From positions 32,001 through 96,000 of the IMG/VR virus record IMGVR_UViG_3300044620_001883: DNA of 64,000 nt; one strand, written 5' to 3'. The translations under genes were made by a program, and so were the position numbers. Below are positions 1,599-37,752 of the stretch, piece by piece. How positions within the stretch are numbered: position 1 is the stretch's first letter; each line of letters opens with the position of its first letter. This DNA is from a virus (lineage: Duplodnaviria; Caudoviricetes). The notes beneath the pieces are model-generated. The model worked only from the letters and a program-made list of their open reading frames with translations. It did no database searches and was not told the DNA's origin.

Positions 1599-1611
1599 TT
1601 ATAGAACTTTG
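1599..1611 (+). promoter_or_regulatory. TTATAGANNTTTG motif copy 1 (candidate phage promoter)
   Basis: TTATAGAACTTTG, intergenic; same motif at 19696 and 37421. Confidence 0.6.
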
Positions 1612-1863
1612 TGCTTGAATGTTCTCTCCTGATCGGGCACCATCACGGTGTAATCTCTCGATTTGAAGAGCGTCTCTGAGTTGAAAAAACAGCGACAATT
1701 GGATCTGACAGGAGGTCATCCCTAAATGCCCGAAGGGCCTGCGAGGATGTTGAGAGTTGGTGTTTTTTCACAAAAGCGAGCGGCCCCGCAACACTTTTGC
1801 CTGTAACAGGGCTCACCAGTTCAAGACAGAATCCAGGCCCTGAGGGCTCCAGGATCACCTCAC
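1611..1863 (+). ncRNA. Structured leader/ncRNA L1 upstream of the initiator-like gene
   Basis: GTGCTTGA/TCGGGCAC stem (1611-1640); TGAAAAAACA/TGTTTTTTCA 10-bp helix (1682-1691/1761-1770) enclosing three smaller stems; further stems to about 1855. Confidence 0.5.
1726..1806 (+). CDS. Possible 26-aa leader peptide (uORF)
   Basis: AGGAGG at 1710-1715, ATG 1726, TAA 1806: MPEGPARMLRVGVFSQKRAAPQHFCL. Confidence 0.3.
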   Translation: MPEGPARMLRVGVFSQKRAAPQHFCL

Positions 1864-3654
1864 ATGTCTCAGACCACCCTCCCCGTGCCGGCTGCCAAGC
1901 AGCCCAAGGCTCCCAAGAAGCCCAGCAAGCCCAAGACACCCCCGTCTTCCCCGCACCTCCTGCCGCGCTGTATTGCCGGTTTGCGGGCTCCTACGATCCC
2001 CGAGCTGTCCCAGCACCCCGACTTCACCAAGAAGAACGTCAGCGACGCCAAGGTCATCCTGATGGCCATTCTGCGCCATGCCAGCTACTGGCAGGTCACC
2101 AAGAAGCTGGTCCGGGCTGACACAGGCTTTTCCGACAAGCGCACCACCAAGGCCCTGAACTACCTCAGGATTCAGCAGATGCTGGCCAACGTGGTTATCC
2201 GGAAGGACAGCAAGTTTCACGGCTGGTGCTTCAGGGTCGATCTGGACGGGAAGGTCCAGAAGGGCGGCTGGGTGCTCCACTACAGCCAGGAGACGGATGT
2301 GAAGCGCGACTTCAATGCCCGGAAACAGATGCGCCGGGAAAAGGGTGGGATCGACAAACCCAAGCCCAAGAAACGCCGCACACGCAAGACCAAGGCTCAA
2401 AAAAATGATCACAGTCAGTACCCCCCAAAACAGGGGGGTACTGACGCCGCTCCTCTGCACTCCTATAATGTAATACCTGTAGAAGCCTCTGAAAAAGAGA
2501 CCCTTTTATTCCCTCTGCCGAGGGAAAATTTCCAATCTCTTCCCGGAGACCCTCAGGACAGTCGCGACCGTCAGGAACTCCAGGGAGGATCGGAATCTCC
2601 GACCACCCCGGAAGTGGTCACGCCTGTCAGTCAGGAACGTCAGGAAGAAATCAAAACAGCCTACCCGGTCTCGGAGGACGTCCTGGAACACATTGAAGAT
2701 CTTGGGCTTCCTCAACCTGACCCGGCGATTGCCCCGACCTTCTACCTTCAGGCTCAGACATCGCTGGAAGCGGATCGATCATCATCAGATCCGGCACATC
2801 ACCATCGCGGCAGGCTCGCGATTGAGAAACTCCAACAGGGGGTGCGACCCCGCAAGGAGGCCGCGTTGGCTTGGTTCAAGGCCAACCTACCCGGCTGGCT
2901 GTTGGAGGATTGCCTCCGCCCTGGGGAGGCCATTACCGTCATGGTGGCTCACAAGTTGGTGCGCAAGCTACACGGTGGCTCCCTGACTCTTGACCACTTT
3001 GCCCGGTATTGGGCCGCGGTGCAGACAGAGCGCTGTAAACGCCTGCCGCTTGTGCATGTCGTGAATCTGCTTTCCAGCGCCTTTGCGATCAAAAACGAAC
3101 AGGATGCCGAGCATGCCACCAGCGCGGCAGCGCGGACTCACGATAAGTTCGGGCGGGTGCTTTACCGCGCTGAAGACGTCTCAGCCAACCTCGTACGGGC
3201 TATCCCGGATATGCGCGTGCCGCATAAAGCCGACACATCTGCGTGGGCACCCGATGCCCTCTACGAGGACCTGCAGGGTTGGAGAAGTGACCAGCTGACC
3301 GAGGGCTACGCTGACCGGTTCCTGTGGGCCGCACGCATCTACGCTCTGGCGGGCTACATGGGCGACCATCATGCTTGCGTGGTACCCCTGCTGCGTGACG
3401 TAAGTGCGGCGAACATCACCAAGCAGGATGTCTGCCGTTGGTTCGTGGAATCCCCTCGGGGGCGTCCGACCTTCGTGCGTGTCGCACGCGAGTTTGGTGC
3501 GTGTGGGTTGGATACCTTCGATGTTTTTGGTATTGACTGGCAGGAGTGCTATGCAAAGGCCTGGCGTCTGTGGGTCTGCCTTGCAACTGTCCGGGAATCC
3601 CAACTGCGGATCCCGTACGCGAACATGAGCCTTGGCGACTTCTGCCGCCACTAA
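1864..3654 (+). CDS. Putative replication initiator (N-terminal winged-HTH)
   Basis: AKVILMAILRHASYWQVTKKLVRADTGFSDKRTTKALNYL resembles phage Rep wHTH; heads the replication module. Confidence 0.55.
   Translation: MSQTTLPVPAAKQPKAPKKPSKPKTPPSSPHLLPRCIAGLRAPTIPELSQHPDFTKKNVSDAKVILMAILRHASYWQVTKKLVRADTGFSDKRTTKALNYLRIQQMLANVVIRKDSKFHGWCFRVDLDGKVQKGGWVLHYSQETDVKRDFNARKQMRREKGGIDKPKPKKRRTRKTKAQKNDHSQYPPKQGGTDAAPLHSYNVIPVEASEKETLLFPLPRENFQSLPGDPQDSRDRQELQGGSESPTTPEVVTPVSQERQEEIKTAYPVSEDVLEHIEDLGLPQPDPAIAPTFYLQAQTSLEADRSSSDPAHHHRGRLAIEKLQQGVRPRKEAALAWFKANLPGWLLEDCLRPGEAITVMVAHKLVRKLHGGSLTLDHFARYWAAVQTERCKRLPLVHVVNLLSSAFAIKNEQDAEHATSAAARTHDKFGRVLYRAEDVSANLVRAIPDMRVPHKADTSAWAPDALYEDLQGWRSDQLTEGYADRFLWAARIYALAGYMGDHHACVVPLLRDVSAANITKQDVCRWFVESPRGRPTFVRVAREFGACGLDTFDVFGIDWQECYAKAWRLWVCLATVRESQLRIPYANMSLGDFCRH
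2414..2445. repeat. Perfect 13-bp inverted repeat, candidate origin inside the initiator gene
   Basis: GTCAGTACCCCCC-AAAACA-GGGGGGTACTGAC followed by an AT-rich stretch (about 2460-2540). Confidence 0.5.
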
Positions 3655-3662
3655 TCCGATAT

Positions 3663-3875
3663 ATGCCCAAGCCACCCATAGAACTCGCAATCGTGCCCGC
3701 GCATTTCCAAAAGGGATGCCGCGTGTACAGCCCCCTCTTCGAGCAGGAGGGAGTGGTAAGCCGTGCTCCGCGTCATGACGACCAAGGGCGTGTGCTGTTG
3801 GACATTCTGTTCGACGGGGATACGATCCCTGTCGTGCAGCGTCCGCTTGAACTTCGTGTAGTCAATTTGGTATGA
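3663..3875 (+). CDS. Hypothetical protein
   Basis: 70 aa, ATGA overlap downstream. Confidence 0.6.
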   Translation: MPKPPIELAIVPAHFQKGCRVYSPLFEQEGVVSRAPRHDDQGRVLLDILFDGDTIPVVQRPLELRVVNLV

Positions 3876-4105
3876 CCCCAGAAACTTCCACTATTCACGC
3901 ATCCCATTCCTTCGTGCTGGAGCAGGCGAAGGCCAATATCGCGTTCGTGCGGGCCAACGCCGAGCACGTCGAGCAGGCAAAACAGATCAACGCGTCCCTG
4001 GCCAACATCGTGGCAATGGAACGCAACCTGGTCATGCACAACGCACTGGAACGCGCCAAGCTGAAGGAACTCAATGAAGACATGCAAAAACTGCTCAAGC
4101 ACTGA
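3872..4105 (+). CDS. Coiled-coil hypothetical protein
   Basis: 77 aa, helical heptad pattern. Confidence 0.65.
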   Translation: MTPETSTIHASHSFVLEQAKANIAFVRANAEHVEQAKQINASLANIVAMERNLVMHNALERAKLKELNEDMQKLLKH

Positions 4106-4739
4106 CTTGGTGGCACGCGGCGCAAGCGGGTTCCGAAACGTGTGTCGTGTCTGCTGGGCGGAGGCTCAACGTGAAGCGTGGGCGAAGAACCGCACAAAAG
4201 GCCGCGCGGCGCTCAAGCGTGCCTATGCCAAGCATGCATCAAAGCGTCGAAGCGAGTCAGCCAAGTACAAGCAACAGCATCGTGAGTACTACGCATTGGC
4301 TGAATGGTTCCGTAAAAAAGGCATTCGTGTCAGCCACATTGCACCATCGGACATCACAGCTTTGGTTGAAATGAAGCAGGCCCTGAAACAGGCCAAGGCA
4401 CAGACGCAGTTACCAACACAATCTCCCAAACTGACTGCGCCAGCGCAACGCGTCTTGACTGCAAGAGCTGGACACGCTGTGGTTGCATCCTTCGTGGAAA
4501 CGCAAAGCGTGACTGCTCCACCAACGCACGAGCTTATTGAAAACATGATCGAACTCCAAGACACTGACCCGATGCCATTTGGTAAACACAAGGGAGATCT
4601 CATGCAGGATGTCCCGGCTAGATACCTGCACTGGCTGTACAGCAACGGCAAAAAGGATGACCGACGCTGCCCCGTCGCGGACTACATTCGCCGCAACCTT
4701 AACGCACTCAAACAGGAGTATTCCGATGGAATCTGGTGA
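4074..4739 (+). CDS. Zn-finger/basic N-terminus plus C-terminal MPFGKHKG (DUF3820/ExoX-C-like) domain
   Basis: CKNC...CRVC at the N-terminus; MPFGKHKGDLMQDVPARYLHWL at the C-terminus; possible internal start at 4545. Confidence 0.55.
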   Translation: MKTCKNCSSTDLVARGASGFRNVCRVCWAEAQREAWAKNRTKGRAALKRAYAKHASKRRSESAKYKQQHREYYALAEWFRKKGIRVSHIAPSDITALVEMKQALKQAKAQTQLPTQSPKLTAPAQRVLTARAGHAVVASFVETQSVTAPPTHELIENMIELQDTDPMPFGKHKGDLMQDVPARYLHWLYSNGKKDDRRCPVADYIRRNLNALKQEYSDGIW

Positions 4740-5097
4740 TCCTGTGGTGTTGTGGGTGGAGCAGGCCCGACGTGCCTACGAGGCTGGGGAACAGCATCCG
4801 ATCCTGACCTTTCTGGAATCAGAGCTCGAGATCGAGATAGCAGAGCGTGGTTGTGATCGTGACATGACCGAGTCGGATCTGGATGCGTACCGCGAGAAGC
4901 GCATGCCCGAGATGCTTGAGGACGTGGTTACGATTCGGGAATACCTGGCATATTGCAGAATCCTGTCCGCAGGTAGAACCACCCCATTGGTTGATCTGCG
5001 CGCGATCATCACAGAAAACCTTCTCAAGGATCTGCCTGATGAATGTCCACAGCTTCTTGGTAGATATTTTGAACTCAAACCGAACAATGGACCCTGA
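4726..5097 (+). CDS. Hypothetical protein
   Basis: AGGAG at 4714-4718 before ATG 4726. Confidence 0.7.
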   Translation: MESGDPVVLWVEQARRAYEAGEQHPILTFLESELEIEIAERGCDRDMTESDLDAYREKRMPEMLEDVVTIREYLAYCRILSAGRTTPLVDLRAIITENLLKDLPDECPQLLGRYFELKPNNGP

Positions 5098-6382
5098 CCA
5101 AGTACGATTTCGCAGCGGGGCCAGCACTGGTGTCCCCGAGGATGTCATGAACTTCGCGCAGGCCTTGGCGGTCAAGCATGGTGCGGTGCTGATCAGCCGG
5201 GAAAAGAACGGGCTGCATTTGAACCTTGCCTGTCCAGCCTGTTTGGAAGTTGAGGGGGATCAGGAGTTGCGCAAACGGCACCTGGCCGTCAATGCAGACA
5301 AGTTCTGCGCAACAGGACGTTGGGAAGGTGCCACAGATCACCTGCGGGACTCCGTAGGGTTGTGCATGAAGTGTGGCACCAAGTACAAGGCCACACAGCT
5401 CATGACCTTTGCGCCACTGGCCGCGCGCGGGATCAAGGAATCCAAGATCGGTTCCGTGTCTTTTGCGGACAACACACAGTGGCTGGTACGCGACGCCCTG
5501 GACAACATTGTTCCCGGTGGTCCGGGCAATGGTCCTCCCGGATCTCGAGGTAATCACGGGGATCCGCGGGATGTCATTCCGATCAACCAGCTGTCTGCTG
5601 ATCATCCCGCCGTCCAGTATTTGCTGGAGCGTGACTATGATTTGCAGAGTTTGTGGGAACAGTTCCGTTGCAGCTACTGTGTGCGAGAATGGGCGCAGGA
5701 TCCCGCGACCAAGCGTTACTACCGCAAACTCTGCGAGGGTTTCCGAGATTCGCCGCAGGGTCGTATTATCTTCTTCGCCGACATTGAGGGGGTGCAAAAA
5801 ACCTGGCAGGCGCGCATCATTGAACGGGTCGCGGAGCATGGTGGTACACGTTTCAAGTATTTCTGGAATGGGGACACAAACACTTGGTTCTGCATGGAGT
5901 CCTACGACGTCGCCAAGAAGAAGTTTATCCCGCCTCCTCAGTACGCGGAACGCTGGTCGCCCAGCAAGTACCGCACAGCTAACGGCACGGCACGGAATGA
6001 GATCCTGATGGGGCTCGATGCGGCTATCGCCTGGAATGCCTGCCATCGTCCTGGTCAGCTGCCAATCGCCTTCACGTCAGAGGGACCGTTGGACGCTGGA
6101 AGGTTGAGGGCGCCGGCCGTGGCGCAGATCGGCAAGTTCCTGTCGGATGATCAGATCGCGCTTCTTGCTCGTCACTTCGCGGTGGTCATTCAGGTGCCCG
6201 ACAATGACGCGGCCGGGCAGAAGGACCTGGAACTTAGCTCACGACGGCTGGCCTCCAAGGTGTTGACCGATGTCTGGCATTTGCCGCAGCAGCTTCCAGA
6301 CGGCAAAGCTGCAAAAGACATTGGGGACTTCCCGCAGGCCTGGGTGGACGAACAAAGGCAAACGTGGTTGAACAGCTACTGA
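5087..6382 (+). CDS. dnaG: DNA primase (DnaG-type, Zn-binding + TOPRIM)
   Basis: CPAC...CMKC Zn ligands; TOPRIM motifs EGPLDA and DNDAAG. Confidence 0.85.
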   Translation: MDPDQVRFRSGASTGVPEDVMNFAQALAVKHGAVLISREKNGLHLNLACPACLEVEGDQELRKRHLAVNADKFCATGRWEGATDHLRDSVGLCMKCGTKYKATQLMTFAPLAARGIKESKIGSVSFADNTQWLVRDALDNIVPGGPGNGPPGSRGNHGDPRDVIPINQLSADHPAVQYLLERDYDLQSLWEQFRCSYCVREWAQDPATKRYYRKLCEGFRDSPQGRIIFFADIEGVQKTWQARIIERVAEHGGTRFKYFWNGDTNTWFCMESYDVAKKKFIPPPQYAERWSPSKYRTANGTARNEILMGLDAAIAWNACHRPGQLPIAFTSEGPLDAGRLRAPAVAQIGKFLSDDQIALLARHFAVVIQVPDNDAAGQKDLELSSRRLASKVLTDVWHLPQQLPDGKAAKDIGDFPQAWVDEQRQTWLNSY

Positions 6383-6385
6383 CCC

Positions 6386-7942
6386 ATGGATATCACGCAC
6401 ATCACACAAATGTCCCCTTCGACAGAACGGGCCTGGAATGAGGTTAAGACACACACGACGCGCACGCCTGCCGTGACGGGTCGTTTTGACGCGCTGCTAG
6501 GCAATGTTTTCAAACTGCGGGATGCGGGTGACGACGGTATTTTCACGAGCAGCTTGCTTATGAAACAGGCAGGCTGGCGGCATGACAACTTGCTGCGGCC
6601 GATCCGGCGATATGTTGCCGCGCACCCTCAGGAAAAGGGTGTGCATTTGTTTCGCTCAGGTCAGCATGTGAACTCGGCGGTGTTTTGGTTGCCGGCGTTG
6701 CAGCGCTTCATCGTATGGCTGCTCAACAGCCTGAAAGGGCATGAGGCAGACCAGCAGCGCAGATGTGCGGGATTCATCGACGTCTACAGCTACATGTCAG
6801 GGCTGCGTAAGACGCGGGAGATCGAGTTCTGCGGACCTCTTATTCGTACAGCCTGGCCGGAATGTGCCAGCCTAGACGCGCTGGCCTGGGAGTACCAACC
6901 CATGTCACAGCTGGTGTTGGACTTCTACCACGACGACTTGAGCCAAACACGCATCGACGTGAGCAAGCTCGCCGCGCGCTGCGGGTATTCCGAGAAGCAC
7001 GTGAGGCGCAAACTGCAGACGTCGCGGGTCGAATATGGGGAGACAGATGACACTGATTTCCTGACTGTGGCGGCAGACGGCACACTCTCACGCAAGACGG
7101 CGGTGTTTCTACTGCTTAGCTTGCCCAAGCTGCTACGTGCCCGGTTGCTGGCGTTCAACGAGCTTTACCGGCGGATTGCACCGGTGCCGGTGCCGTGCCC
7201 CGCAGGTCTGCCTGAGTATATTTCCAAGGTGGACTTTAATGATCCTAAACAGGCGGTGCAGGCTTGTCTGCAGCTGGTCGAACGCACGAGGCAGCAACAG
7301 CAACACCATGTTCAATACAAGGCCGAGACGTTGCAGCGCATTCAGGACATGCAAGGGGCCGCGGATGTTCTGGCGGCGGAGCTGGCCGGCAAGAACGAGG
7401 AGCTGGCGCGGTTGAAGACCAGTCTGGCGCAAGCGACAGCAGCGGGCTCCATCGTGCGAAGTCCTGAAACTGACAGAATGGTTTACCATTCCAGCAAACT
7501 TCGGCAGGACCACGGCTGGTGCACGATCAATGACGTGTTGGCTGCGCTGTTGGACAAATACGATTATGACACCCTGCTCGCCATGGTGCACACAGCAATG
7601 CCCGCCAGCTCGCGTGACGTGAACAAAGTTCTGCGCAATGTGGTGCGGTTCAAGATAGGGCAGAAGAAATTGCGGGCGGACGGCGAGCCTGTGTTGCGTC
7701 CGCAGATCATGATTGAACAGAAAGCATTTGTACGGCGGGTGCACACGTCAAACAGCAGCACCGCAGGTTACCGTGCCAAGCATGGAACAGACCGCGATTG
7801 GCGCTGGCAGGTGTTCTTCACCCCTGTGGGAGCACGCTGGCTGGTCGATGATTTTCCGGCCCATGTGGAAGAATTCCTGGCAGCACGTTGCCCCGAGCAC
7901 ATGGCTGAGTGTGAACTGCCGGGGGAACTGGTCACGACATGA
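6386..7942 (+). CDS. Rha-like / antirepressor-like multidomain DNA-binding protein
   Basis: SSLLMKQAGWRHDNLLRPIR (Rha-like); central coiled coil; C-terminal QVFFTPVGARWL (KilAC/ANT-like). Confidence 0.55.
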   Translation: MDITHITQMSPSTERAWNEVKTHTTRTPAVTGRFDALLGNVFKLRDAGDDGIFTSSLLMKQAGWRHDNLLRPIRRYVAAHPQEKGVHLFRSGQHVNSAVFWLPALQRFIVWLLNSLKGHEADQQRRCAGFIDVYSYMSGLRKTREIEFCGPLIRTAWPECASLDALAWEYQPMSQLVLDFYHDDLSQTRIDVSKLAARCGYSEKHVRRKLQTSRVEYGETDDTDFLTVAADGTLSRKTAVFLLLSLPKLLRARLLAFNELYRRIAPVPVPCPAGLPEYISKVDFNDPKQAVQACLQLVERTRQQQQHHVQYKAETLQRIQDMQGAADVLAAELAGKNEELARLKTSLAQATAAGSIVRSPETDRMVYHSSKLRQDHGWCTINDVLAALLDKYDYDTLLAMVHTAMPASSRDVNKVLRNVVRFKIGQKKLRADGEPVLRPQIMIEQKAFVRRVHTSNSSTAGYRAKHGTDRDWRWQVFFTPVGARWLVDDFPAHVEEFLAARCPEHMAECELPGELVTT

Positions 7943-8205
7943 ACAGGAACGTACAGTGGGTTGGAACATGCGTTCATCTACCTGCACACAGGTTGGAAGC
8001 GTTCGATAATTCCTCTCGCGAGGTTACGTACCGGACGTTCTTGAAGCATGTGGGGTTGTACATTGTGCGTGAGCTCAATGAGCAATTCGGTTTTCATCCG
8101 ACAATCAAGAATGACTGCCACATTCAGTACTACCGCGGCAAATGGTGCGGGCGTCCTGCTATGTGCATGATGCATTCCAGTATTCACCACATCTGGCTGC
8201 TATGA
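7939..8205 (+). CDS. Conserved-looking phage hypothetical protein
   Basis: SREVTYRTFLKHV...NDCHIQYYRG pattern; ATGA overlaps. Confidence 0.65.
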   Translation: MNRNVQWVGTCVHLPAHRLEAFDNSSREVTYRTFLKHVGLYIVRELNEQFGFHPTIKNDCHIQYYRGKWCGRPAMCMMHSSIHHIWLL

Positions 8206-8444
8206 AGAAAAAGACACCTAGACAAAAGAAGAAGCGCAAGGTGGAGTTCTGTCCCCGCCTCAAACCCTTTCGGTTACCGGAAGGGGAGCGGGGTCCTGTG
8301 GATCCGGTGACGGGCGATTTTGACATGGGATCCTCGTGTCATGGAAACTCAGCTTGCAGCAAGCGCGGTGTGAGTCACAGGATGCACAAGGTGACACCCC
8401 AAATGTGGGTCTGCCTCAATCCCGGCTGCTACGCCAACTGTTGA
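8202..8444 (+). CDS. Basic Cys-containing hypothetical protein
   Basis: ATGA overlap; 80 aa. Confidence 0.55.
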   Translation: MKKKTPRQKKKRKVEFCPRLKPFRLPEGERGPVDPVTGDFDMGSSCHGNSACSKRGVSHRMHKVTPQMWVCLNPGCYANC

Positions 8445-8450
8445 TTAACT

Positions 8451-11876: not shown

Positions 11877-11880
11877 ACCA

Positions 11881-12004: not shown

Positions 12005-13987
12005 ATGGCAACTCATATCCCAACTAAACAAACCAGCCGCCGACTCACCGGTGGCAGTGCAGCAGAAGAACAGATGGACGCAGGCTTCAGCTCTGTGATC
12101 AGCCTATTCCAACCAGGGGTTGAATGGATTCAACCTGGCGACAAACGTGTGAACTTGCAGGTGCGCTTCAAACCGGCCCACGACCCACAGTTGGATCCGC
12201 AGGACCCAGCGTTCAAGCTCTCGGTAGTTCCCTACCGCACCAACTCAATCGACGCGGAATCCGGTCACCCGTTCTTCAGCGCCTGGTATGTGCCGTATCG
12301 TTCGTATCGTTATCTGGGCAACCAGAAACTCTCGTTCGTGTCTCCTATCACACGTGGGGACAGTTATCCCGAAGCGGATCGCACTTGCCCTGTGGTGATG
12401 CTGCTGCGGTATTGCAAGAAACACGCGGAATACGCGCACCTGCTTGAAGAGCGCCCGCGCACTCCTGACAACAAGTACGGTAAGCCAATCCTCCAATGGC
12501 CCGGCACGAGCATGGCTTACAATGTTGTGGCCGCGCATCGTGATCAGCAAACCCCGAAGGACATGCTGCTCACGATTGATCGCGGCGGGCACTTGAACAT
12601 GGTGGATCAGCTGGATCGTGCGACTCCGCGTGCTGCTCCTCCGGACATGCTTTCCCCTACCGGGGCGCCTCTGAATCCCGCGGACCCGCGCTGGAAGCAG
12701 TTTATGCCGCCTCATCTGGTGGACCCCAAGTGGGAACAGTACATGCTCGGCGATATCACAGATCCCGCTCGTGGATTGTTGGCGACAGTGAAGCAAGTTC
12801 AGTCTGGTAACTCTTCCGCAACGCCATGGTGCCCAGTCTTCTCCACGGAGCCCGGTTGGCCCGCTGGTATCGTGCAGTACCCGCTGACACAGCAACAGCT
12901 TGAGAATCGTTACGATCTTCAGTCTGAAGATGTGATTCGCATCGAGCCCTTTCAGCGTCTTGTTGAGATCTTGATCGCCGACGGTTTCTTGCCGCGTGAT
13001 CTGATTGCTGTTGTCTGTGGTGGTATGTGTGACATCCCTGGAGGTGGTGCGCCCTCTCCGACTTACAAGTCGGCTGTCACGGGTTTTGCACAACCGTCCG
13101 ACGACGACATTCCGATGCAGCACCCCGCGCCAGCCCAGCAGGCTCCGGCCTTCGGAGGTCAACAGGCTCCAGCGCCTGCTTACCAAGCCCCAGCTTTCGG
13201 GGACCAGCAGGCTCCGGCCTTCGGAGGTCAACAGGCTCCAGCGCCTGCTTACCAAGCCCCAGCTTTCGGGGGCCAGCAGGCTCCAGTGCCCGCTTATCAG
13301 GCTCCGGCCTTTGGCGGTCAGCAGGCTCCAGTGCCCGCTTATCAGGCTCCAGCCTTTGGAGGTCAGCAGGCTCCAGCCTTTGGAGGTCAGCAGGCTCCCG
13401 CCTTCGGAGGTCAGCAGGCTCCCGCCTTCGGAGGTCAACAGGCTCCAGCGCCTGCTTATCAGGCTCCGGCCTTCGGAGGTCAACAGGCTCCAGCGCCTGC
13501 TTATCAGGCTCCGGCCTTCGGAGGTCAACAGGCTCCGGCCTTCGGTCAACCGGCAACCAGCCCGTTGGGCCATGAAGCGGACACTCCGTTTACGGCACCG
13601 CCTCCACCACCTCCACCTCCGCCTCCGCCTCCACCTCCGCCGCCTCCACCTCCACCTCCCGCGCCCGCCCAGTTTTTCTGGGTTGCTGAAAATGGTGTAA
13701 GTCGTGCGGAGCCGGTGGCACTGCATGACCTGGGCAAATGCCCACCTGAGGTCCGCGTGTGTAGCGTCGTGGATCCAAGTAAGGGGTGGCAGTCAATTGC
13801 AGACGTGCTCGGCACGGGCGTCTCCGTTGAAACCAACGACAGCAGCGCACTGACCGGACCGGAAATGCAGGAGTGGGCGGAACTCGACGCACAGTCGCGA
13901 AACCGCACCATGGACATGCCTGGTGAGCGGCTCATGCGCTTGGGTGCGCTGCAGCAACGGGCAAGGGCAGCAGGGCAATCCCTGTAA
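12005..13987 (+). CDS. Putative gp32-like ssDNA-binding protein with low-complexity tail and GYF_2-like C-terminal domain
   Basis: Lies between polA and recA; GDITDPARG and RYDL segments typical of gp32-like SSBs; repeats; 21 consecutive Pro; FWVAENG..P..L..W..IADV. Confidence 0.55.
   Translation: MATHIPTKQTSRRLTGGSAAEEQMDAGFSSVISLFQPGVEWIQPGDKRVNLQVRFKPAHDPQLDPQDPAFKLSVVPYRTNSIDAESGHPFFSAWYVPYRSYRYLGNQKLSFVSPITRGDSYPEADRTCPVVMLLRYCKKHAEYAHLLEERPRTPDNKYGKPILQWPGTSMAYNVVAAHRDQQTPKDMLLTIDRGGHLNMVDQLDRATPRAAPPDMLSPTGAPLNPADPRWKQFMPPHLVDPKWEQYMLGDITDPARGLLATVKQVQSGNSSATPWCPVFSTEPGWPAGIVQYPLTQQQLENRYDLQSEDVIRIEPFQRLVEILIADGFLPRDLIAVVCGGMCDIPGGGAPSPTYKSAVTGFAQPSDDDIPMQHPAPAQQAPAFGGQQAPAPAYQAPAFGDQQAPAFGGQQAPAPAYQAPAFGGQQAPVPAYQAPAFGGQQAPVPAYQAPAFGGQQAPAFGGQQAPAFGGQQAPAFGGQQAPAPAYQAPAFGGQQAPAPAYQAPAFGGQQAPAFGQPATSPLGHEADTPFTAPPPPPPPPPPPPPPPPPPPPPAPAQFFWVAENGVSRAEPVALHDLGKCPPEVRVCSVVDPSKGWQSIADVLGTGVSVETNDSSALTGPEMQEWAELDAQSRNRTMDMPGERLMRLGALQQRARAAGQSL
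13136..13546 (+). repeat. Coding tandem repeat of 24-nt (QQAPAFGG) and 45-nt (QQAPAPAYQAPAFGG) units
   Basis: 12 units in order A-B-A-B-B-B-A-A-A-B-B-A with synonymous variation. Confidence 0.95.
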
Positions 13988-19674: not shown

Positions 19675-19708
19675 GCAATACAGCGACCTTCCACGTTATA
19701 GATATTTG
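19675..19708 (+). promoter_or_regulatory. GCAATA-N15-TTATAGANNTTTG motif copy 2
   Basis: GCAATA 19675-80, TTATAGATATTTG 19696-19708; same spacing as copy 3. Confidence 0.65.
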
Positions 19709-20066
19709 GTGAAGAGATTCATCAACACGGTTGAGACCTGGGTCCGCAAGGGCAGCCAGGTCGCCCTGATCCAACTTGGTTGGATCGGGAAACCCCTCGC
19801 ACTATTGTGCGGGGTGGTTGTTGTAGGCGCACTTATCCTTGGCGGGTGTTCCGCCTTGGTTTGGGTGTTCGCCGACGGGCTGCGTATCCTGCTCGTCACC
19901 TTCGTGGTGGCGTGCATGGTGCCCTGGAATGCCGTCCTGCCTTTGTGCAGCGGTGTCGCAGCCCTTGTAGCGGTGGGAGAGTTGCTACCGACTCTCCTCA
20001 GCATACTGCCCACTTTGGGTAGTGTGTGGGTACTCCTAACGGTGCTGCGGGTCTTTCAGGGCCCGG
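19708..20066 (+). ncRNA. Structured leader/ncRNA L2
   Basis: At least 9 stems, e.g. GGTGAA-GAGA-TTCATC; GACCTGG/CCAGGTC enclosing GTCC-GCAA-GGGC; 11-bp stem 19765-19789; 9-bp stem 19976-19997; 12-bp stem 20001-20027; many G-U pairs. Confidence 0.6.
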
Positions 20067-20083
20067 AAAGGAGGTCAGCATGA
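19709..20083 (+). CDS. Hydrophobic ORF, possibly a by-product of the G/T-rich structured RNA
   Basis: GTG start, V/L/G-rich; overlaps L2 entirely. Confidence 0.3.
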   Translation: MKRFINTVETWVRKGSQVALIQLGWIGKPLALLCGVVVVGALILGGCSALVWVFADGLRILLVTFVVACMVPWNAVLPLCSGVAALVAVGELLPTLLSILPTLGSVWVLLTVLRVFQGPERRSA

Positions 20084-20859
20084 CAAAGCTGGCGTCCCTA
20101 CTAGGAGAGTTTGACGTCGATACATTGTTGGGCGACCCGCCCAGCGATGTACCTGCCGACCAGCCACCACACAATGGTGGGCTAGATCTGAACAGGATCA
20201 CAGGCGGAGGTGGGGATGGGGACGATGTATACCGGGGCCATCATCGGCCCTGCTATCAGTTCATCTACATCATACCTGGGGCAGGAGTGGTACCTCTATG
20301 GCGCCGCAAGTGCCTGAAGGAACTTCTGAGCTGTTGCCTGTTTCAGTTCCAGCAGCAATGGGAGCCCTGTCAGGAGTACCTGGAGATGTGGATGCTAGGG
20401 GTGACAAGTACCGCCAACTCTGAAATGGCATTCATGGTACCGGGCGGGGTGTCCGGGTGGGAGCACAAATCCATCTCAGAGCTCCGACAGCGTCATAGTC
20501 CGGAGCTTTCTGTGGTGACGTTGAAAATGAAGCTCCCACCATCTCCGTGGGAGCTTTGTCCTAACATCCACGTACCCGGCAGGGCCAGGAATGACAGCTG
20601 GGGAGTGCGCACCGTGCCTCTCAGCCAACTTCCCTTGGACGATCATTGGCCGCCCAAGATGGGGACAAGAATCCCATTTACCCCGAGCAGTACCGGCAGA
20701 GGAAAACTGCCAGGTCTGAACCTTACGGACAAGGAATGGGAGTGGGAAGGTGACTGGCGTCCAGGTGCCGGTGCAGTTGTCAATGCCGCGACGATCGGTA
20801 TGCAGGCGGGTGCCTTCTACACGGGTGTGTATGAGGATATGGGCGTAATCCCACGCTGA
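20080..20859 (+). CDS. Hypothetical protein downstream of L2
   Basis: Strong SD AAGGAGGT just upstream; 259 aa. Confidence 0.75.
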   Translation: MTKLASLLGEFDVDTLLGDPPSDVPADQPPHNGGLDLNRITGGGGDGDDVYRGHHRPCYQFIYIIPGAGVVPLWRRKCLKELLSCCLFQFQQQWEPCQEYLEMWMLGVTSTANSEMAFMVPGGVSGWEHKSISELRQRHSPELSVVTLKMKLPPSPWELCPNIHVPGRARNDSWGVRTVPLSQLPLDDHWPPKMGTRIPFTPSSTGRGKLPGLNLTDKEWEWEGDWRPGAGAVVNAATIGMQAGAFYTGVYEDMGVIPR

Positions 20860-26656: not shown

Positions 26657-26663
26657 AACAGCG

Positions 26664-26703: not shown

Positions 26704-26763
26704 TGGTTGAACTGATGCCTAAGCAGGCGGCAATCAAACCCTCCAAAACAACTTCCCACTCCC

Positions 26764-28572: not shown

Positions 28573-28590
28573 TCTACATTTTGCGGTATT

Positions 28591-30067: not shown

Positions 30068-30074
30068 ATGCGCC

Positions 30075-31944: not shown

Positions 31945-32495
31945 CACCCAGCATTGCTGATATTATCTCACGCGCCCAAGAAAGTCTTGGGCAGGTATGG
32001 TTGACCAACTATCGGAGTAGCGACGGCAAAGTTGCGAATTATCGGCTGCAGGTGCATCCCGCGCATTTCTATCCGTCTCTGATCAACCAGACTATCGCCA
32101 TGTTACAGCGAGTCGCGGAGGAAACAGAGCAGAAGGCTGAGTGTCCAGCCCCGGCGGTCATGCAGGCTGCCGCGACGCGATTGCTGGGCACGTTACAGCA
32201 GCGGCAGGCCGCCTTTGAGGAGCAGCAGAAATCTGCTGCGGGTATGCCACCCGAGAACCCCAATCTGCAGTTGCAGCCAGACGCGACGCTCATGCTGCGC
32301 AACGTGGAGGTACTCGAGACTGTCGTGGTTGAAGAACCAGCAATGAAGGCAGGCAAACGCGCCACCGCCGCAAAGGTGTACACACCGGATGAACAAGCGG
32401 AGCGTTGGCTACGGGCCAACTGGCCGTTAAAGCGTTACGGGGCGTCTTTCAAACTTGTCCCTGGAAAGTTTAGTTCAATCGTACCAACCGCTTAA
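31941..32495 (+). CDS. Hypothetical protein
   Basis: ATGA overlap; 184 aa. Confidence 0.75.
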   Translation: MTPSIADIISRAQESLGQVWLTNYRSSDGKVANYRLQVHPAHFYPSLINQTIAMLQRVAEETEQKAECPAPAVMQAAATRLLGTLQQRQAAFEEQQKSAAGMPPENPNLQLQPDATLMLRNVEVLETVVVEEPAMKAGKRATAAKVYTPDEQAERWLRANWPLKRYGASFKLVPGKFSSIVPTA

Positions 32496-32502
32496 AACAC
32501 AC

Positions 32503-33117
32503 ATGGAATTCTACTCAAAACACAACAGGCTTACGCCAGAACTCTGGCATGATTACAGCGTCAACGCCTACAGGACGACGCCGGATGTCGGAAAACTGCT
32601 AACGCAATGGGGAGTTATTCAACCTGGTCAAGACCCTGCAATGGTGGTGTGGGATCTGGCAAATGTCAGGCGTGTCGAGGATCTCAAGCACGGCGCCCAC
32701 GGACTGGCCACGGAGTTGTATGAATACGCCTGCGCTCCGGATGAGGAAAACCGCAACGAGGAACTTGGGGATATCTGCTGGTACTTGGCTGTGATCGTAC
32801 GTGGCCTTGACTTGTGCCTCGATGATATCTGCCCACCAACCGATGACGGCACCATGTTTGCAATGACATTCCCGGCGTGTGCACATGAGGTTGTGGGAGA
32901 CCTCAAACGCCTGGCCTACTATGATCGCCAAGAAATACGGGACAGGTTAATCACCAACATCAGATCCACATTGATCTGTATTCAGGGACTTGCATCCTGC
33001 AGCATGGCCGAGTTGCTAGATCAGAACAGTCATAAACTTCTCAAGAAACGTTACCCTGATGGATTCAGCAACGAAGCAGCTACGGCTCGCCGCGATAAAC
33101 CGGGCGAGAGCGATTGA
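32503..33117 (+). CDS. MazG-like nucleotide pyrophosphohydrolase
   Basis: GLATELYE...EELGDICWYLA and N..KLLKKRYPDGFS. Confidence 0.85.
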   Translation: MEFYSKHNRLTPELWHDYSVNAYRTTPDVGKLLTQWGVIQPGQDPAMVVWDLANVRRVEDLKHGAHGLATELYEYACAPDEENRNEELGDICWYLAVIVRGLDLCLDDICPPTDDGTMFAMTFPACAHEVVGDLKRLAYYDRQEIRDRLITNIRSTLICIQGLASCSMAELLDQNSHKLLKKRYPDGFSNEAATARRDKPGESD

Positions 33118-33481
33118 TGCAGAATGGCATCGAGCGGGGGAGTTGATGCGGACCACCCAGGACTTTCGTTCGGACGTGGCCTGGTATTGGGCAGGACCAG
33201 AGGACGACTTCACACGTGCTGCTTTTTGGCAGATCGTGGTGCAGGCACGCTGCATTGTGTTGGAGTTCCTCAATGACGCGATCATTGGATTGGTCTGGGA
33301 TCGAGGCCAACCCGCAGTAGCCTACGACGCCTCGCTGGCGCTGGCGATCTTGCGGCGTAAATGGCTGTTGGGGGACACGTCAACAAAGTTGCAGCGCGAG
33401 ATAGAGGCCAGGGAACTTGAGAAGTTCGAGGCAATGCTGCACACAGACTTTGGAAAGACAACGCCTTGGTTTTTGATGTAG
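33059..33481 (+). CDS. Hypothetical protein (start uncertain)
   Basis: 140-aa ORF filling the gap before the AT-rich region. Confidence 0.55.
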   Translation: MDSATKQLRLAAINRARAIDAEWHRAGELMRTTQDFRSDVAWYWAGPEDDFTRAAFWQIVVQARCIVLEFLNDAIIGLVWDRGQPAVAYDASLALAILRRKWLLGDTSTKLQREIEARELEKFEAMLHTDFGKTTPWFLM

Positions 33482-33720
33482 ATGGTTATAAGAGTATCCA
33501 GTATAATACACTGAAGAATGTGCGAAATGGGCAATTTCCTGAACGTGTTTTGGAATAAGTTGAACAAACTGTTCAGCGTGATACATGTATGCTAAGTATT
33601 GATTATCAATTATTTAGCTGCGTTTTAGGTTTCACCAGAAATGGTGCGCTTAAAATGTTGTTCAGCGTTTTAAGTTATTGCTACACAGTGCTTTACAACA
33701 CTCAATTTGCTGATGGCTAC
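33482..33720. promoter_or_regulatory. AT-rich palindrome cluster with an IHF consensus site
   Basis: TATAAT 33502; GTTGAACA/TGTTCAGC; ATACATGTAT; near-palindrome 33591-33618 containing TATCAATTATTTA (WATCAANNNNTTR) 33604-33616. Confidence 0.55.
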
Positions 33721-34147
33721 AATGTACAGTTTCGCGTGTATTGACACGAATGGTGGTCATCGCAATTACTACCGGACCGCGAGCAAGGAGTCTATGTGCG
33801 TGCTGGGCGCTGACGGCAAAACCGTGCTGCAGTGTCCCGAAGACATTGATCACACGGACACGATTGTGTTGCCTGGCGGTGTGCACCTCAGCATCCGAGA
33901 GATCGCACTTTCGGGTCTAGCAGGTTGGGTGACAGCACCCCCCACGTCCTATCGTTGGTGGTTGGAGTTCACGGACGGTACACGCGCCTCTTACTTGTTG
34001 CGTGAGCCTGACAGCACAGTTTATCAGTTTTTTCCTGAGCAGGAAAACGGAGCATGGGTGCCTGCGCGCACCGTGCAGGAGCAGGCAATCTTGTGGCACC
34101 CACGTGCGAACAAGTACGGGTTAGTTGTTAAAGTACATCCTGTTTAG
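33707..34147 (+). CDS. Hypothetical protein (start 33707-33722)
   Basis: Open frame after the AT-rich region. Confidence 0.65.
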   Translation: MLMATMYSFACIDTNGGHRNYYRTASKESMCVLGADGKTVLQCPEDIDHTDTIVLPGGVHLSIREIALSGLAGWVTAPPTSYRWWLEFTDGTRASYLLREPDSTVYQFFPEQENGAWVPARTVQEQAILWHPRANKYGLVVKVHPV

Positions 34148-34188
34148 ATTGTACTTGCCGTCGTTGATTATCTTGCCAGTTCTACATC

Positions 34189-34755
34189 ATGGTTAAAAAA
34201 GCATCATCTAAAGGGGGCACCGCATCTGCGAGTGCCGGTATCGAAGTCGTCTATCGCGTCGGTGGGCAGGAGTTCACTGACAAGGCCGCTGCGGAAACGC
34301 ATGCTGCGAAGCATTCCGTGGAAGCAAAAGTAGCGTCCGCTGTGTCGGCTGTCATGCAACGCACCGCAGCGCGCAAGCGTCAGGACGTGCATGAGGGTGT
34401 CAAACATGTGTGCACACTGCTGCTCACCAATCCGGAGCTCGCGGCAAGGCTGCAGGAACTCATCAGCGGCGGAGGCGTGGACGCGAAAGCAGCAACGCGT
34501 GCCGTCGCAAAGACCCCCAAGACAAAGAAACCCACGGCGGAAGCCAAGGCACCAAGGGCCAAGAAACCCGCAGCGCCCGAGAGCAAGCCCGAGAAACCTG
34601 CGGAGTCGGAAAACAAGCCCGAGAAGCAGACCAGGACCAAGAAAGCTGCCGCGGTCAAACCTGCAGCAACCCCACCGGCTGCGGCGGAGGCTCCACCCAA
34701 GATCGACTTCTCCAAGTTTCCACCGCCACCCCCGCCACCACCACCTGGTAAGTAA
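34189..34755 (+). CDS. Lys/Ala/Pro-rich histone-H1-like protein with P9-GK terminus
   Basis: KKPTAEAK, KKPAAPESKPEK, KKAAAVK; ends FPPPPPPPPPGK. Confidence 0.7.
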   Translation: MVKKASSKGGTASASAGIEVVYRVGGQEFTDKAAAETHAAKHSVEAKVASAVSAVMQRTAARKRQDVHEGVKHVCTLLLTNPELAARLQELISGGGVDAKAATRAVAKTPKTKKPTAEAKAPRAKKPAAPESKPEKPAESENKPEKQTRTKKAAAVKPAATPPAAAEAPPKIDFSKFPPPPPPPPPGK

Positions 34756-34791
34756 GCACAGGAACTGATCTCCTCTAACGACGTACTTGCC

Positions 34792-35343
34792 ATGGACCCT
34801 CACATCATCATTTCCGGTTCGAATCCCCAGCCTACTGAACCCCCATCTCCGACTGGAGGTGTGGCGTTCCGGCAGGCGGATTTTGACCAGCAGGTGCGAG
34901 GGCTCCATGCAAGTGCACGTGTGCGTCCAGAGGACGTACTTGTCGGTAATCCGGAGCATCGGCCCTTTGTGACGGTGATCCCGATTCTACCCCATCCCTT
35001 CAGTGTTGATCTGCAGCATGTGATCATTTTCACACGCGCGCCGAATCTGACAGAGGCGCTGGGCCGCACACCCATCATCTGGGAGAAGTTCATCAAACCG
35101 ATACACTTCCCACCACAGTCGGACTTCACAGGTGTTCCAATGGCGAAAGCCTTGGACGAAGAGGATTGGGTCGAGTACCTGAAATCCTGCCTGCGGGCGC
35201 AAAGAGACCAACCGCACAAGTACAAACTTGTGGCGCTGGGCCGCGGTTCATTCCCGCACACATTTTGTCCCTTGTGGTTGCTGGAGGACTTCAAGGATAT
35301 GTGCAGCTTCGAAGTGGACAACCGCAAGGATGTGGTCGCGTGA
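34792..35343 (+). CDS. Hypothetical protein
   Basis: 183 aa. Confidence 0.7.
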   Translation: MDPHIIISGSNPQPTEPPSPTGGVAFRQADFDQQVRGLHASARVRPEDVLVGNPEHRPFVTVIPILPHPFSVDLQHVIIFTRAPNLTEALGRTPIIWEKFIKPIHFPPQSDFTGVPMAKALDEEDWVEYLKSCLRAQRDQPHKYKLVALGRGSFPHTFCPLWLLEDFKDMCSFEVDNRKDVVA

Positions 35344-35579
35344 CCAAACACGCACCAGTCGAAATGGAATTGCGCCGGTTGACGGCGGCTCATCGTTACG
35401 GTGAGTTGAAAAATGTACGACGCCTTTCACCAGGGTTAGCGGCAGGAGTGGTCCAAACCGGCTGTAGGACACTCATTTGTCGGCGCCTGAGAACAGGGGA
35501 ATGCGTTTTGTTGTGGTCCGCATCATGGCTGCCTTTGCGGCAGCTTCTGAGGCTCCAACATGCCGGCTATCAAACATAA
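35340..35579 (+). CDS. Hypothetical protein
   Basis: GTGA overlap; fills the gap. Confidence 0.4.
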   Translation: MTKHAPVEMELRRLTAAHRYGELKNVRRLSPGLAAGVVQTGCRTLICRRLRTGECVLLWSASWLPLRQLLRLQHAGYQT

Positions 35580-36375
35580 CAGAGTTACAGGCAGTGCGCG
35601 CAAGAGCACTGCGGGACGTTGGAAACAGAAACAGCTGCAGAAGCAGCCCACAGGTGCGCTGCTAAAGTTCAGTCGTGACAATGCCAAGCTGGGAAGTCAC
35701 ATCCTGACGTTTTCCCTGCCATCCGGCCACACATGCCCCGGAGCTTGCACCTGTTTGGCCAAGGTGGATTTCAACACTAACCGGCTTGTGGACGGACCGC
35801 AGCAGGACACACGATGCTTTTCTGCCTCGCAGGAAGTGGCGTTCAAGAACTTGCGTGAAGCCAGGCGCTTCAACTTCGCATTGCTCCGTCGGCTCAAGAA
35901 AGCCACAGACATGCGGGATCTGATTTTGCGATCTCTGCCTGATGTGGGTGGTATCATTCGGATACACATCGGAGGTGACTTCTTTTCGCAGACATACTTT
36001 GACGCCTGGCAAATGGTGGCGCAGGCGCGTCCATATCAAAAGTTTTACGCGTACACGAAGTCCATACCGTTCTGGCGCAACTGGCTCAACAGGCACAAGG
36101 CGCTGGCCAAGAACTGTTTTCTGACGGCCAGCCTTGGTGGTAAGTTCGACGACCTAATTCTCCCGGGCTGGGTCACAGCCCAGATTGTAAAACATCCCGA
36201 CGTGGCCGAGGCGTTGGAACTGGAGATCGACCATGATGACTCCCATGCCTACAACCCGCGTGGGTCCTTTGCACTGCTGATCCATGGTCCACAACGCCCA
36301 GGTACAGAGGCTGCTGCCTCGCTCAAAACGCTGCGTGAAGAAGGTGTGCAGTACAGCTATTCACGAAAAAAATGA
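35560..36375 (+). CDS. GP88-like (Gene product 88) protein
   Basis: NAKLG..FSLPSGHTCPGACTC..C, IRIHIGGDFFSQTYFDAW, FYAYTKS. Confidence 0.75.
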   Translation: MPAIKHNRVTGSARKSTAGRWKQKQLQKQPTGALLKFSRDNAKLGSHILTFSLPSGHTCPGACTCLAKVDFNTNRLVDGPQQDTRCFSASQEVAFKNLREARRFNFALLRRLKKATDMRDLILRSLPDVGGIIRIHIGGDFFSQTYFDAWQMVAQARPYQKFYAYTKSIPFWRNWLNRHKALAKNCFLTASLGGKFDDLILPGWVTAQIVKHPDVAEALELEIDHDDSHAYNPRGSFALLIHGPQRPGTEAAASLKTLREEGVQYSYSRKK

Positions 36376-36578
36376 ACGAGCAACGAATTCTGAAGCGTCT
36401 GGCTCAAGCCCGTCGAGGGCTGTGCATTGCTTTGTGGTGTGCTGTACTTCTGCCATTACCAGCTGCCTTGATTTCTCCCTCCGTGGCTTTTATGACGTCT
36501 GGAATTGTGCTTGCAGTTGCAGCGCTTTTATGGTGGTATCGGGCGCATTTGTTTAGCAGCCTCATAGATCATGACTGA
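36372..36578 (+). CDS. Small 2-TM membrane protein
   Basis: Two hydrophobic helices; ATGA overlap. Confidence 0.65.
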   Translation: MNEQRILKRLAQARRGLCIALWCAVLLPLPAALISPSVAFMTSGIVLAVAALLWWYRAHLFSSLIDHD

Positions 36579-36939
36579 AACACCCAGCAAACCCACGCCC
36601 TATGATGGGCTTCCGCTAGAAGCCAAAGAACTGGCAGCCTTTGCGCTCTTCAAGGCGCTGCTGCAGCCGGTGGACGCAAAAGACTCACGGCCGCTGGGGG
36701 CTGTGATAAGCCTGAAGTCTTGGGAGACGTGCGCCGAGGCGGACCAAGCTGAGCTGCACTGGCGCGACGACAAGAACCTGCGCTTCATTTTCCGCAGCTT
36801 CGGCCGGGTTGTGGTTGAGGAGTTGCTGCAACAGGGCTTCACGATCAGACCGCCACGTGAAAAACAAATGCTCGACCAGCTCGATGCGGTCGTGACAGTA
36901 CCGTCACACCCTGCCTACCAACTGACGGACGACATCTGA
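36571..36939 (+). CDS. Hypothetical protein
   Basis: 122 aa. Confidence 0.7.
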   Translation: MTETPSKPTPYDGLPLEAKELAAFALFKALLQPVDAKDSRPLGAVISLKSWETCAEADQAELHWRDDKNLRFIFRSFGRVVVEELLQQGFTIRPPREKQMLDQLDAVVTVPSHPAYQLTDDI

Positions 36940-36944
36940 TACTT

Positions 36945-37406
36945 ATGCATGTCGCGCGACTACTCCAGATGGCTGATTACCTTGATCGTCTGGATCCGTC
37001 GCGTTTCACCATGCAGGCCTGGGTGCGCGTACCGCAGGCTCCGCGTTCGCACTTGATCAACCAACTCCCACCGGACAGCCGAGCTTGCCCGGTGGGATGG
37101 CTTCCTGACTTGGATCCTGAAAACTGGTGTTGGGTGGCCGTGCCTGAATCCTCTGAAGGGAAAGTGGAGTTGACCATCTACCCCGTGTGCAAGGTAGCCG
37201 CGGTATGGTGTGGGGAGGGACTGCAACCACATAACCTTGACCTCAATCCGGTGGTGTGTCGGGTGTGGCAGCAGGTGCGAGAATGGTTCGAGCTGGATTC
37301 GTTACAGCTGACGGGGCGGCTATTTGAGAGCAGTGGGTATGGTAATGGCGAGCCGGAACCGGGTCAAGTGGCGCGACGCATACGCGAGACAGTTTGTGTG
37401 CAATAA
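36945..37406 (+). CDS. Hypothetical protein
   Basis: RLLQMADYL..FTMQAW..ACPVGW pattern. Confidence 0.7.
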   Translation: MHVARLLQMADYLDRLDPSRFTMQAWVRVPQAPRSHLINQLPPDSRACPVGWLPDLDPENWCWVAVPESSEGKVELTIYPVCKVAAVWCGEGLQPHNLDLNPVVCRVWQQVREWFELDSLQLTGRLFESSGYGNGEPEPGQVARRIRETVCVQ

Positions 37407-37433
37407 CACACACCAACGCGTTATAGAAATTTG
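37400..37433 (+). promoter_or_regulatory. GCAATA-N15-TTATAGANNTTTG motif copy 3
   Basis: GCAATA 37400-05, TTATAGAAATTTG 37421-33. Confidence 0.65.
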
Positions 37434-37752
37434 AGGACGGCTACGCTTGGTGGCGCCTCACCCATCTCCCGAAAGGGCACGAACTGGGGACCTTCGGGTC
37501 CCCGCCTGCGTACTGGCTCGCTACCAGCACGCAGGTTTGTTCGGCTTCGGGCTTTGCAGTGACTTCATCGGGTCATGCATTTGGGGAAATCAAACAGGTC
37601 ATGGGTGACCTGTACGATGGTTCGTGTTCACGAGACCCCACAGGGGCGGGAATCAATATGGGGCGGCATACGCCCCCACAGGGCCCAACTGGCCCGACCG
37701 CTGACCTGGCAGTTACTACCAGGATCGTTCCGGCGAAATCCGGTTCCACACC
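37433..37752 (+). ncRNA. Highly structured RNA L3 (multi-helix junction + candidate pseudoknot)
   Basis: cUUCGg 7-bp hairpin, GAAA hairpin, 7+4-bp and 8-bp stems, long-range CACGAAC/GTTCGTG, loop ATGGGT complementary to linker ACCCAT. Confidence 0.7.

Follow-up and report, generated by a model that had tools for sequence, protein, structure and literature searches.

A rare two-part promoter-like motif of uncultured freshwater jumbo phages, two candidate structured RNA leaders and a membrane-protein gene

What is the function of a short AT-rich word, TTATAGANNTTTG, that stands at only three places in a phage genome, each time ahead of a long, strongly folding stretch? We examined this question in a stretch of 64,000 nucleotides (nt), here referred to as the window, taken from the minus strand of a 121-kb record (IMG/VR record IMGVR_UViG_3300044620_001883) that is rated 59% complete and belongs to lake-water metagenomes. 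An earlier note, made from the letters alone, had proposed that the word is a promoter read by the phage's own split RNA polymerase (RNAP) and that it is followed by three structured RNA leaders (here L1, L2 and L3) forming one RNA-based expression system. Comparison with related contigs suggests that the motif is most likely the core element of a promoter of two parts, rare but strongly conserved, which belongs to a clade of freshwater jumbo phages that are as yet uncultured. Of the three leaders, two are genuine conserved non-coding RNAs, one of them with strong covariation, and the third is a gene. A single RNA-based expression system is not supported.

The three copies of the motif, at 1599, 19696 and 37421, are all intergenic and all on the + strand, which carries nearly all genes of the window. 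Shuffled sequences gave an expectation of 0.01 copies, and the whole 121-kb record contained exactly three, even with one mismatch allowed. In a scan with a weight matrix built from eight sites, the three scored 31-47 and the next best position 6, with no tail of weak copies. As the earlier note had observed, copies 2 and 3 are preceded by GCAATA at a distance of exactly 15 nt. Its statement that each copy stands just after a stop codon holds loosely: copies 2 and 3 lie 25 and 14 nt past one, and copy 1 abuts the stop of a doubtful 63-codon frame. There, a 195-codon open reading frame (ORF; 816-1403) ends in TAG and the same frame stays open for 63 more codons to the TAA that abuts the motif (window 816-1598); read-through, a recent nonsense mutation or chance could explain this extension. 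The three sites are made up as follows:

1578 to 1611, + strand: promoter-like site 1, with the upstream box TGGATG at 1578-1583 (not GCAATA), the core at 1599-1611 and the putative +1 at G1611.
19675 to 19708, + strand: promoter-like site 2, with GCAATA at 19675-19680, a 15-nt spacer and the core at 19696-19708.
37400 to 37433, + strand: promoter-like site 3, with GCAATA at 37400-37405 overlapping the stop of the upstream gene, a 15-nt spacer and the core at 37421-37433.

Related sequences were recovered by several routes. A search with PolA led to a 53-kb contig, G001 (of which L004 and L005 are stretches), whose PolA is 69% identical in protein and 68% at the nucleotide level, and to a distant contig, L015, in which neither the motif nor L1 was present within 10 kb upstream. 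Contigs with site 3 were found through the 435-amino-acid (aa) protein encoded behind L3, and orthologs of copy 2 through walks along two of those contigs. A protein search of IMG/VR with the three downstream genes returned no close relatives, and metagenome runs X4-X7 yielded same-strain fragments only, with no informative leader variants.

In five related contigs the motif is kept at matching positions. The ortholog of site 1 in G001 (L004:1622) reads TTATATGACTTTG, with two mismatches, and has TGGAAC at the same 15-nt distance. Orthologs of site 2 were found at L004:21856 (G001; one mismatch), near L040:228 and near L041:1166, and those of site 3 at L033:9764, L034:7139, L036:9669 and L038:9609, and likewise in L039; in L035 and L037 the motif lies farther upstream of the 435-aa gene than it does in the window. 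G001 carries a third, exact copy of the motif with GCAATA 15 nt upstream. Together the sites give the consensus tGCAATAa, 13 unconserved nt, CG, TTATAGA-NN-YTTG and a purine, with the upstream box of copy 1 being TGGAW in both phages. At L005:1481-1948 (G001:2697-3164), this promoter, again with GCAATA at 15 nt, precedes 436 nt of non-coding sequence, behind which comes a 72-codon ORF; the non-coding stretch has perfect hairpins of 14-16 bp and a folding z-score of -8.25, a TnpB-like gene is found on the opposite strand, immediately upstream, and no DNA counterpart was found in the contig of the window.

Two conserved boxes at a fixed distance, a free spacer between them, and a position that is always on the gene strand and heads runs of genes argue for a promoter, and what is kept in the relatives agrees with the earlier description of a cis-acting element whose geometry is -35/-10-like and whose sequence is not of the sigma70 type. 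Promoter function and start site, like leaderless translation and every regulatory mechanism discussed below, are what we infer from such comparisons. Transcription would most likely start at the terminal G of the motif, since a pyrimidine at -1 meets a purine at +1 there and since a 5'-terminal hairpin, a type of fold that shields the 5' ends of mRNAs, begins at this position. A hairpin beginning precisely at this G had been claimed for all three copies; it covaries in copy 2 and recurs in copy 3, in agreement with a transcript start at this place, and across the three copies it lies at or near the last G. The promoter would then head three unrelated transcription units.

Which polymerase might read it? 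A domain search placed the RNAP beta domains RNA_pol_Rpb2_3 and Rpb2_6 in separate ORFs, which makes this a phage of the jumbo type with a split multisubunit RNAP. Jumbo phages with multisubunit RNAPs have early-promoter motifs of ~10 nt that are AT-rich, highly conserved and located near -10 (PMC7598289), and the present motif agrees with this definition of virion-RNAP early promoters, as an AT-rich conserved motif of this length near -10 in a phage that encodes a multisubunit RNAP. The early promoters of phiKZ, AR9 and PhiR1-37 (PMC7598289) resemble it in being AT-rich conserved words of ~10-13 nt just upstream of the presumed start, visible by eye before operons, and these phages also share the split beta-like RNAP genes. 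The present motif departs from them in occurring only three times in 121 kb, in a further conserved box 15 nt upstream and in its sigma-like geometry. The host RNAP, with a primary or alternative sigma factor and possibly redirected by a phage factor, may read the promoter in place of the phage's split RNAP, a reading that we regard as possible but somewhat doubtful. The spacing is sigma70-like, with 16 nt between GCAATA and TATAGA in a -35/-10-like arrangement, and the RNAP promoters known from jumbo phages have been described as single motifs, located near -10 or at the start site, without a -35 box (PMC7598289). However, the hexamers are poor sigma70 matches with A in place of T as the last -10 base, and a scan for the sigma70 consensus returned nothing at the three motif positions; moreover, the motif is conserved far more tightly than is usual in housekeeping promoters, and the phage has RNAP genes of its own. 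No sigma r2/r4 domains are encoded in the contig.

The distances from the terminal G to the ATG (253, 372 and 320 nt) were as previously given, and the question is then what these intervals contain. Behind copy 2 lies a protein-coding gene and not a non-coding leader:

19709 to 20083, + strand: "L2", gene of a 124-aa multi-pass membrane protein; its GTG start comes right after the last G of the motif and its stop overlaps the next ATG (ATGA).
20080 to 20859, + strand: gene of a 259-aa protein with a strong Shine-Dalgarno (SD) sequence (AAGGAGGT); its start overlaps the stop of the membrane-protein gene (ATGA).

Four orthologs of this region were compared (window 19709-20083, L040:241-615, L041:1179-1553 and L004:21869-22255). 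The same frame, of 375, 375, 375 and 387 nt, is the sole one open in all four, the other two frames having 1-8 stops each. Between the window and L040, the proportions of synonymous (pS) and non-synonymous (pN) differences are 0.47 and 0.18, and changes cluster at third codon positions (24/19/53 differences at positions one, two and three). It is on this open frame, this ratio and this clustering that the coding assignment rests. The product is hydrophobic and multi-pass, with a conserved N-terminal VETWVRKGSQV. The ATGA overlap suggests translational coupling with the 259-aa gene.

The mRNA of this gene nonetheless folds far more stably than most coding sequence, with z-scores against dinucleotide shuffles of -3.2 to -7.5 in all four orthologs, compared with +1.6 to -1.5 in 15 of the 16 coding control windows. 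The remaining control, an outlier at -4.1, is the stretch 38300-38675 inside the 435-aa gene. At the very 5' end of the copy-2 mRNA the hairpin covaries (GGUGAA/UUCAUC, GAUGAG/CUCGUC and GAUG/CAUC), and in the next hairpin pairing is held in G001 by two double changes that alter amino acids. Hairpins that change and yet persist may reflect selection on mRNA structure inside the membrane-protein gene.

If transcription starts at the terminal G, the second unit would be an mRNA that is leaderless or has a one-nt leader, with the 124-aa membrane protein as first cistron coupled to the next gene. An in-frame RTG directly follows the motif in all four orthologs, behind the putative mRNA 5' end. In Akkermansia (Verrucomicrobia), ~10% of transcript starts are leaderless and the rule of a pyrimidine at -1 and a purine at +1 is general (PMC4782308). 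The arrangement of copy 2 is similar to that of leaderless mRNAs such as lambda cI and those common in Actinobacteria, Deinococcus and Akkermansia (PMC4782308), in that all four orthologs have their start codon at the putative start site and lack an SD. In contrast to typical leaderless mRNAs, two orthologs begin with GTG and the other two with ATG, the start codon lies within the 5' hairpin, and the start site is a predicted one.

The region behind copy 3, in contrast to that behind copy 2, is a real structured RNA with covariation. It comprises a 5'-terminal hairpin and three domains, directly followed by an orphan gene:

37433 to 37459, + strand: 5'-terminal hairpin of L3 (GAGG...CCUC) from the putative +1; in L035 and L037 its place is taken by another hairpin.
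37459 to 37557, + strand: 5' domain of L3, a junction of two hairpins closed by CGAAC/GUUCG.
37553 to 37647, + strand: variable middle domain of L3, deleted in L033; it carries the distal partner 37620-37627.
37639 to 37752, + strand: 3' domain of L3, four hairpins ending a few nt before the ATG.
37753 to 39060, + strand: orphan 435-aa gene, always located after the L3 core; its homologs (62-91% identity) all have the core directly upstream.

Five distinct L3 homologs, all from one phage clade, were available: the window (identical to L038 and L039), L033, L034 (identical to L036), L035 and L037. In the alignment of the 5' domain (A9, five sequences), 92.7% of cells are paired, compared with 79.9% in column shuffles, and none of 500 shuffles reached the observed value. 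Registers slid by 1-3 columns pair at 25-47%, and 12 of the 33 pairs are changed on both sides, so that the covariation anticipated by the earlier note for this leader stands above both slid and shuffled controls. The 3' domain (alignment A10) has 95.6% of its cells paired, compared with 29-51% in slid controls, and three pairs changed on both sides, and RNAalifold on four sequences found compensatory changes in 18 of 65 pairs. Leader and downstream gene diverge at similar rates, with nucleotide identities for leader and gene of 85/81, 76/75 and 54/66%. In L3 it is structure that is conserved, and not sequence, aside from an 18-nt stretch, UCCCGAAAGGGCAYGAAC, that is invariant in all homologs.

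One strand of the 5' domain (~37477-37484) has two competing partners. The proximal one makes 5/5 pairs in all sequences, with one covarying pair. The distal helix makes 8/8 pairs in the window and 8/8 in L035, where two pairs are changed (C-G to U-A and G-U to G-C), 6/8 in L034, and is absent from L033. These competing helices may form a conformational switch. A candidate pseudoknot was rejected, being formed by 4/6 and 3/6 pairs and deleted in L033. The third unit would thus consist of a 320-nt multi-domain RNA ending at the start codon of the orphan 435-aa gene, in which mutually exclusive partners for one strand may switch conformation and control translation or stability.

L3 shares several traits with large cis-regulatory leaders and riboswitches, namely helices supported by covariation, invariant single-stranded stretches, a position right before a start codon and two competing pairings. 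It differs from most riboswitches in its length (~320 nt), in having no match to an Rfam family, and in being represented by five distinct sequences from one phage clade. In L035 and L037, the core lies ~900 nt from the motif and still adjoins the 435-aa gene, which argues that it belongs to this gene and not to the promoter. In these two contigs (L035:6734-7955 and L037:550-1771, of the G001-type phage) another leader, of 250 nt, comes after the promoter, next a 208-aa gene that has a good SD, and only then the L3 core and its gene.

This strict synteny, kept even with the promoter ~900 nt away, could also mean that L3 (and perhaps L1 too) has a function of its own as an RNA, such as that of a partner or scaffold of the 435-aa protein, a new riboswitch class or a processed trans-acting RNA. 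Its size and several domains, the strong covariation, the mutually exclusive helices and the invariant 18 nt would be in line with such a role, as would a protein family without a recognizable domain: the 435-aa protein had no match in Atlas, Pfam or PHROG, even via remote homologs, and its AF2 model was unusable (pLDDT 35). We consider this unlikely, given that L3 always ends a few nt before the start codon, as expected of a cis-regulator, that its middle domain is dispensable, being missing in L033, that no copies were found elsewhere, and that neither processing nor a terminator between RNA and gene was evident. Similarly improbable in our view is a more far-reaching proposal, in which L3 would represent a new large structured RNA class (~320 nt) of jumbo phages that acts with the 435-aa protein or senses a ligand while switching between two covariation-supported pairings, and in which the transcripts of this promoter class, including the membrane-protein mRNA, would be selected for folding stability as a phage-specific expression strategy.

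L1, behind copy 1, stands out by conservation:

1611 to 1863, + strand: L1, a non-coding leader of 253 nt with a long-range helix enclosing small hairpins.
1726 to 1806, + strand: upstream ORF (uORF) in L1, preceded by the SD-like AGGAGG at 1710-1715 and covering the 5' strand of the long-range helix.
1864 to 3654, + strand: gene of a 596-aa protein, probably replication-initiator-like with a winged helix, heading a module with primase and PolA.

L1 is 81-85% identical to its counterpart in G001, with indels of 1-2 nt, whereas the protein downstream is 28% identical and PolA 68% at the nucleotide level. By this comparison L1 is an unusually conserved non-coding leader, far better kept than the neighboring genes. 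Of the 50 pairs predicted in the consensus fold, two are compensatory, one in the long-range helix (G-C to A-U) and one in the 5' hairpin, and six are changed on one side only. The SD-led uORF exists in both phages, with 26 codons in the window and 12 in G001, and every difference between them is non-synonymous; it may be translated for regulation, but does not encode a conserved peptide.

The 596-aa protein had no Pfam or PHROG match, and its Atlas features point weakly to HTH_36, DnaD_N and Phage_rep_O; on these features it is probably a winged-helix replication-initiator-like protein. Its homologs with 59-64% identity are found on bacterial contigs (L007, L009, L011 and L013), in islands composed of an integrase, HTH_17, this gene and two more genes, one of the contigs looking verrucomicrobial. 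With the gene closer to these islands than to the ortholog in the related phage (28%), an exchange of modules between phage and host islands is suggested. The 20 nt before its ATG are also common to the bacterial islands. A mimic of the anti-SD before this ATG was considered and dropped, CA-rich upstream regions without SD being the norm in this phage.

Structured leaders with a leader peptide control plasmid rep genes, as in R1 tap/repA and IncI repY/repZ. Copy 1 shares with these a structured leader before an initiator-like gene and an SD-led short ORF over one strand of a long helix. It differs from them in that its uORF ends at least 58 nt before the main start, which leaves no direct coupling, in that the length of the uORF is not conserved, and in that the initiator assignment is weak. 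The first unit would accordingly be a 253-nt cis-acting 5' untranslated region (UTR) ahead of a Rep-like initiator gene, in which translation of the short ORF could open the L1 structure and so tune synthesis of the initiator.

The position of L1 directly before a Rep-like gene heading the replication module, and its conservation far above its surroundings, raise another possibility, namely that the motif and its flanks act at the level of DNA, as a binding site of a phage protein, or as an RNA processing site cleaved in an AU-rich single strand by a hairpin, with L1 as a replication origin. AU-rich words that adjoin stems resemble RNase E-type sites, and L3 folds equally well on either strand. 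As a whole this explanation, the origin included, seems to us quite improbable. An unconserved spacer of constant length between two conserved boxes is a typical promoter trait, and all copies are on the gene strand at operon-like starts. The helices keep pairing via G-U intermediates: in the + sense, the L3 5' domain has ~15 G-U cells and ~5 A-C cells (A-C by hand tally), and the + strand is favored for L3 since the former outnumber the latter. In L1, the differences include compensatory and G-U-compatible changes, and no regularly spaced iterons were seen.

Do the three regions then form one system? Beyond the promoter they do not align with each other, and what they have in common is the promoter, a hairpin at or near the last G of the motif and above-average folding. 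Even the dense stems described earlier are unevenly distributed, with z-scores of -6.8 to -7.5 for L2, -2.7 to -3.3 for L3 and a weaker -1.8 to -2.7 for L1. A covariance model of the L3 5' domain (R1) matched this genome once and G001 not at all, and one RNA family, or one class, for the three leaders was rejected on this basis. What stands of the proposed three long structured leaders is L3, by its covariation, and L1, by its conservation. The CC-GNAA-GGGCA element does have its tetraloop at +38..+41 in copies 2 and 3, as noted before; it is absent from this position in copy 1 and L005, and its displacement with the L3 core to ~900 nt from the motif in L035 and L037 argues against a link to the promoter. 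A promoter-proximal antitermination RNA of the lambda nut boxB or HK022 put kind was likewise rejected: no hairpin element recurs at a fixed distance after each copy, and the +38 element is limited to copies 2 and 3. In Rfam 15, no match at gathering thresholds was found in the window, in agreement with the earlier note, and around the three sites nothing scored below a chance-like E of 0.3. Pattern scans of viral and genome collections with conserved words of L1 and L3 returned G001 or chance matches only; the covariance model and BLAST rejected all.

The surrounding genes offer some context for these elements. The window encodes a PolA fused to a UDG-like domain, a primase-like protein, a DEAD helicase and an NAD ligase. 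No relatives were found among GenBank phages, and at the sequence level no isolated phage is related to the clade. Its host probably belongs to Verrucomicrobiota, since a contig bearing the islands with the nearest homologs of the 596-aa gene has a flanking gene that shares 71% identity with a Verrucomicrobiota metagenome-assembled genome. An SD-like word precedes 16 of 52 called genes in close relatives (~30%), which suggests that the phage, and presumably its host, mostly uses SD-independent initiation. At L040:5765-5786, L041:553-574 and other gene starts, CA-rich repeats, for example (CCACCC)n, immediately precede the start codon. TAG recoding is unlikely, with TAG as the stop of 11 of 103 confident genes. 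The PolA homolog of L015 (L015:9980-14827) has 1615 aa, compared with 1141 aa in the window, and probably carries an insertion, for example an intein or an extra domain. A low-complexity tract coding for Pro and Gly (window 13596-13660) draws hundreds of unrelated metagenome contigs and produces a spike in read depth, an artefact of composition and not of copy number.

Taken as a whole, the explanation that we favor, with moderate confidence, is a rare phage promoter class that would produce one near-leaderless mRNA and two cis-acting 5' UTRs. Several points weigh against it. The hexamers deviate from the sigma70 consensus in a contig with no phage sigma factor found, and three copies in 121 kb (~59% of the genome) are few for an early promoter class of a jumbo phage. 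L1 has a single diverged homolog and its covariation rests on two pairs, while its uORF varies in length (26 vs 12 codons), ends at least 58 nt before the main ATG and has changed only non-synonymously. The 5' hairpin containing the start codon of copy 2 should hinder leaderless initiation. By folding energy, L3 does about as well on the minus strand. Finally, the missing SD at the two leader genes is not special, as most genes of the phage have none.

For jumbo phages that are uncultured, and for phages whose hosts resemble Verrucomicrobiota, next to nothing is known of transcription signals and of regulation at the RNA level. The present analysis adds a promoter candidate with a precise predicted start site and two new candidate cis-regulatory RNAs, one of them with solid covariation and a possible conformational switch. 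It also corrects a misreading, in that strong folding and a G/U-rich composition are compatible with a bona fide gene. With the L3 model R1, metagenomes can be mined for further members.

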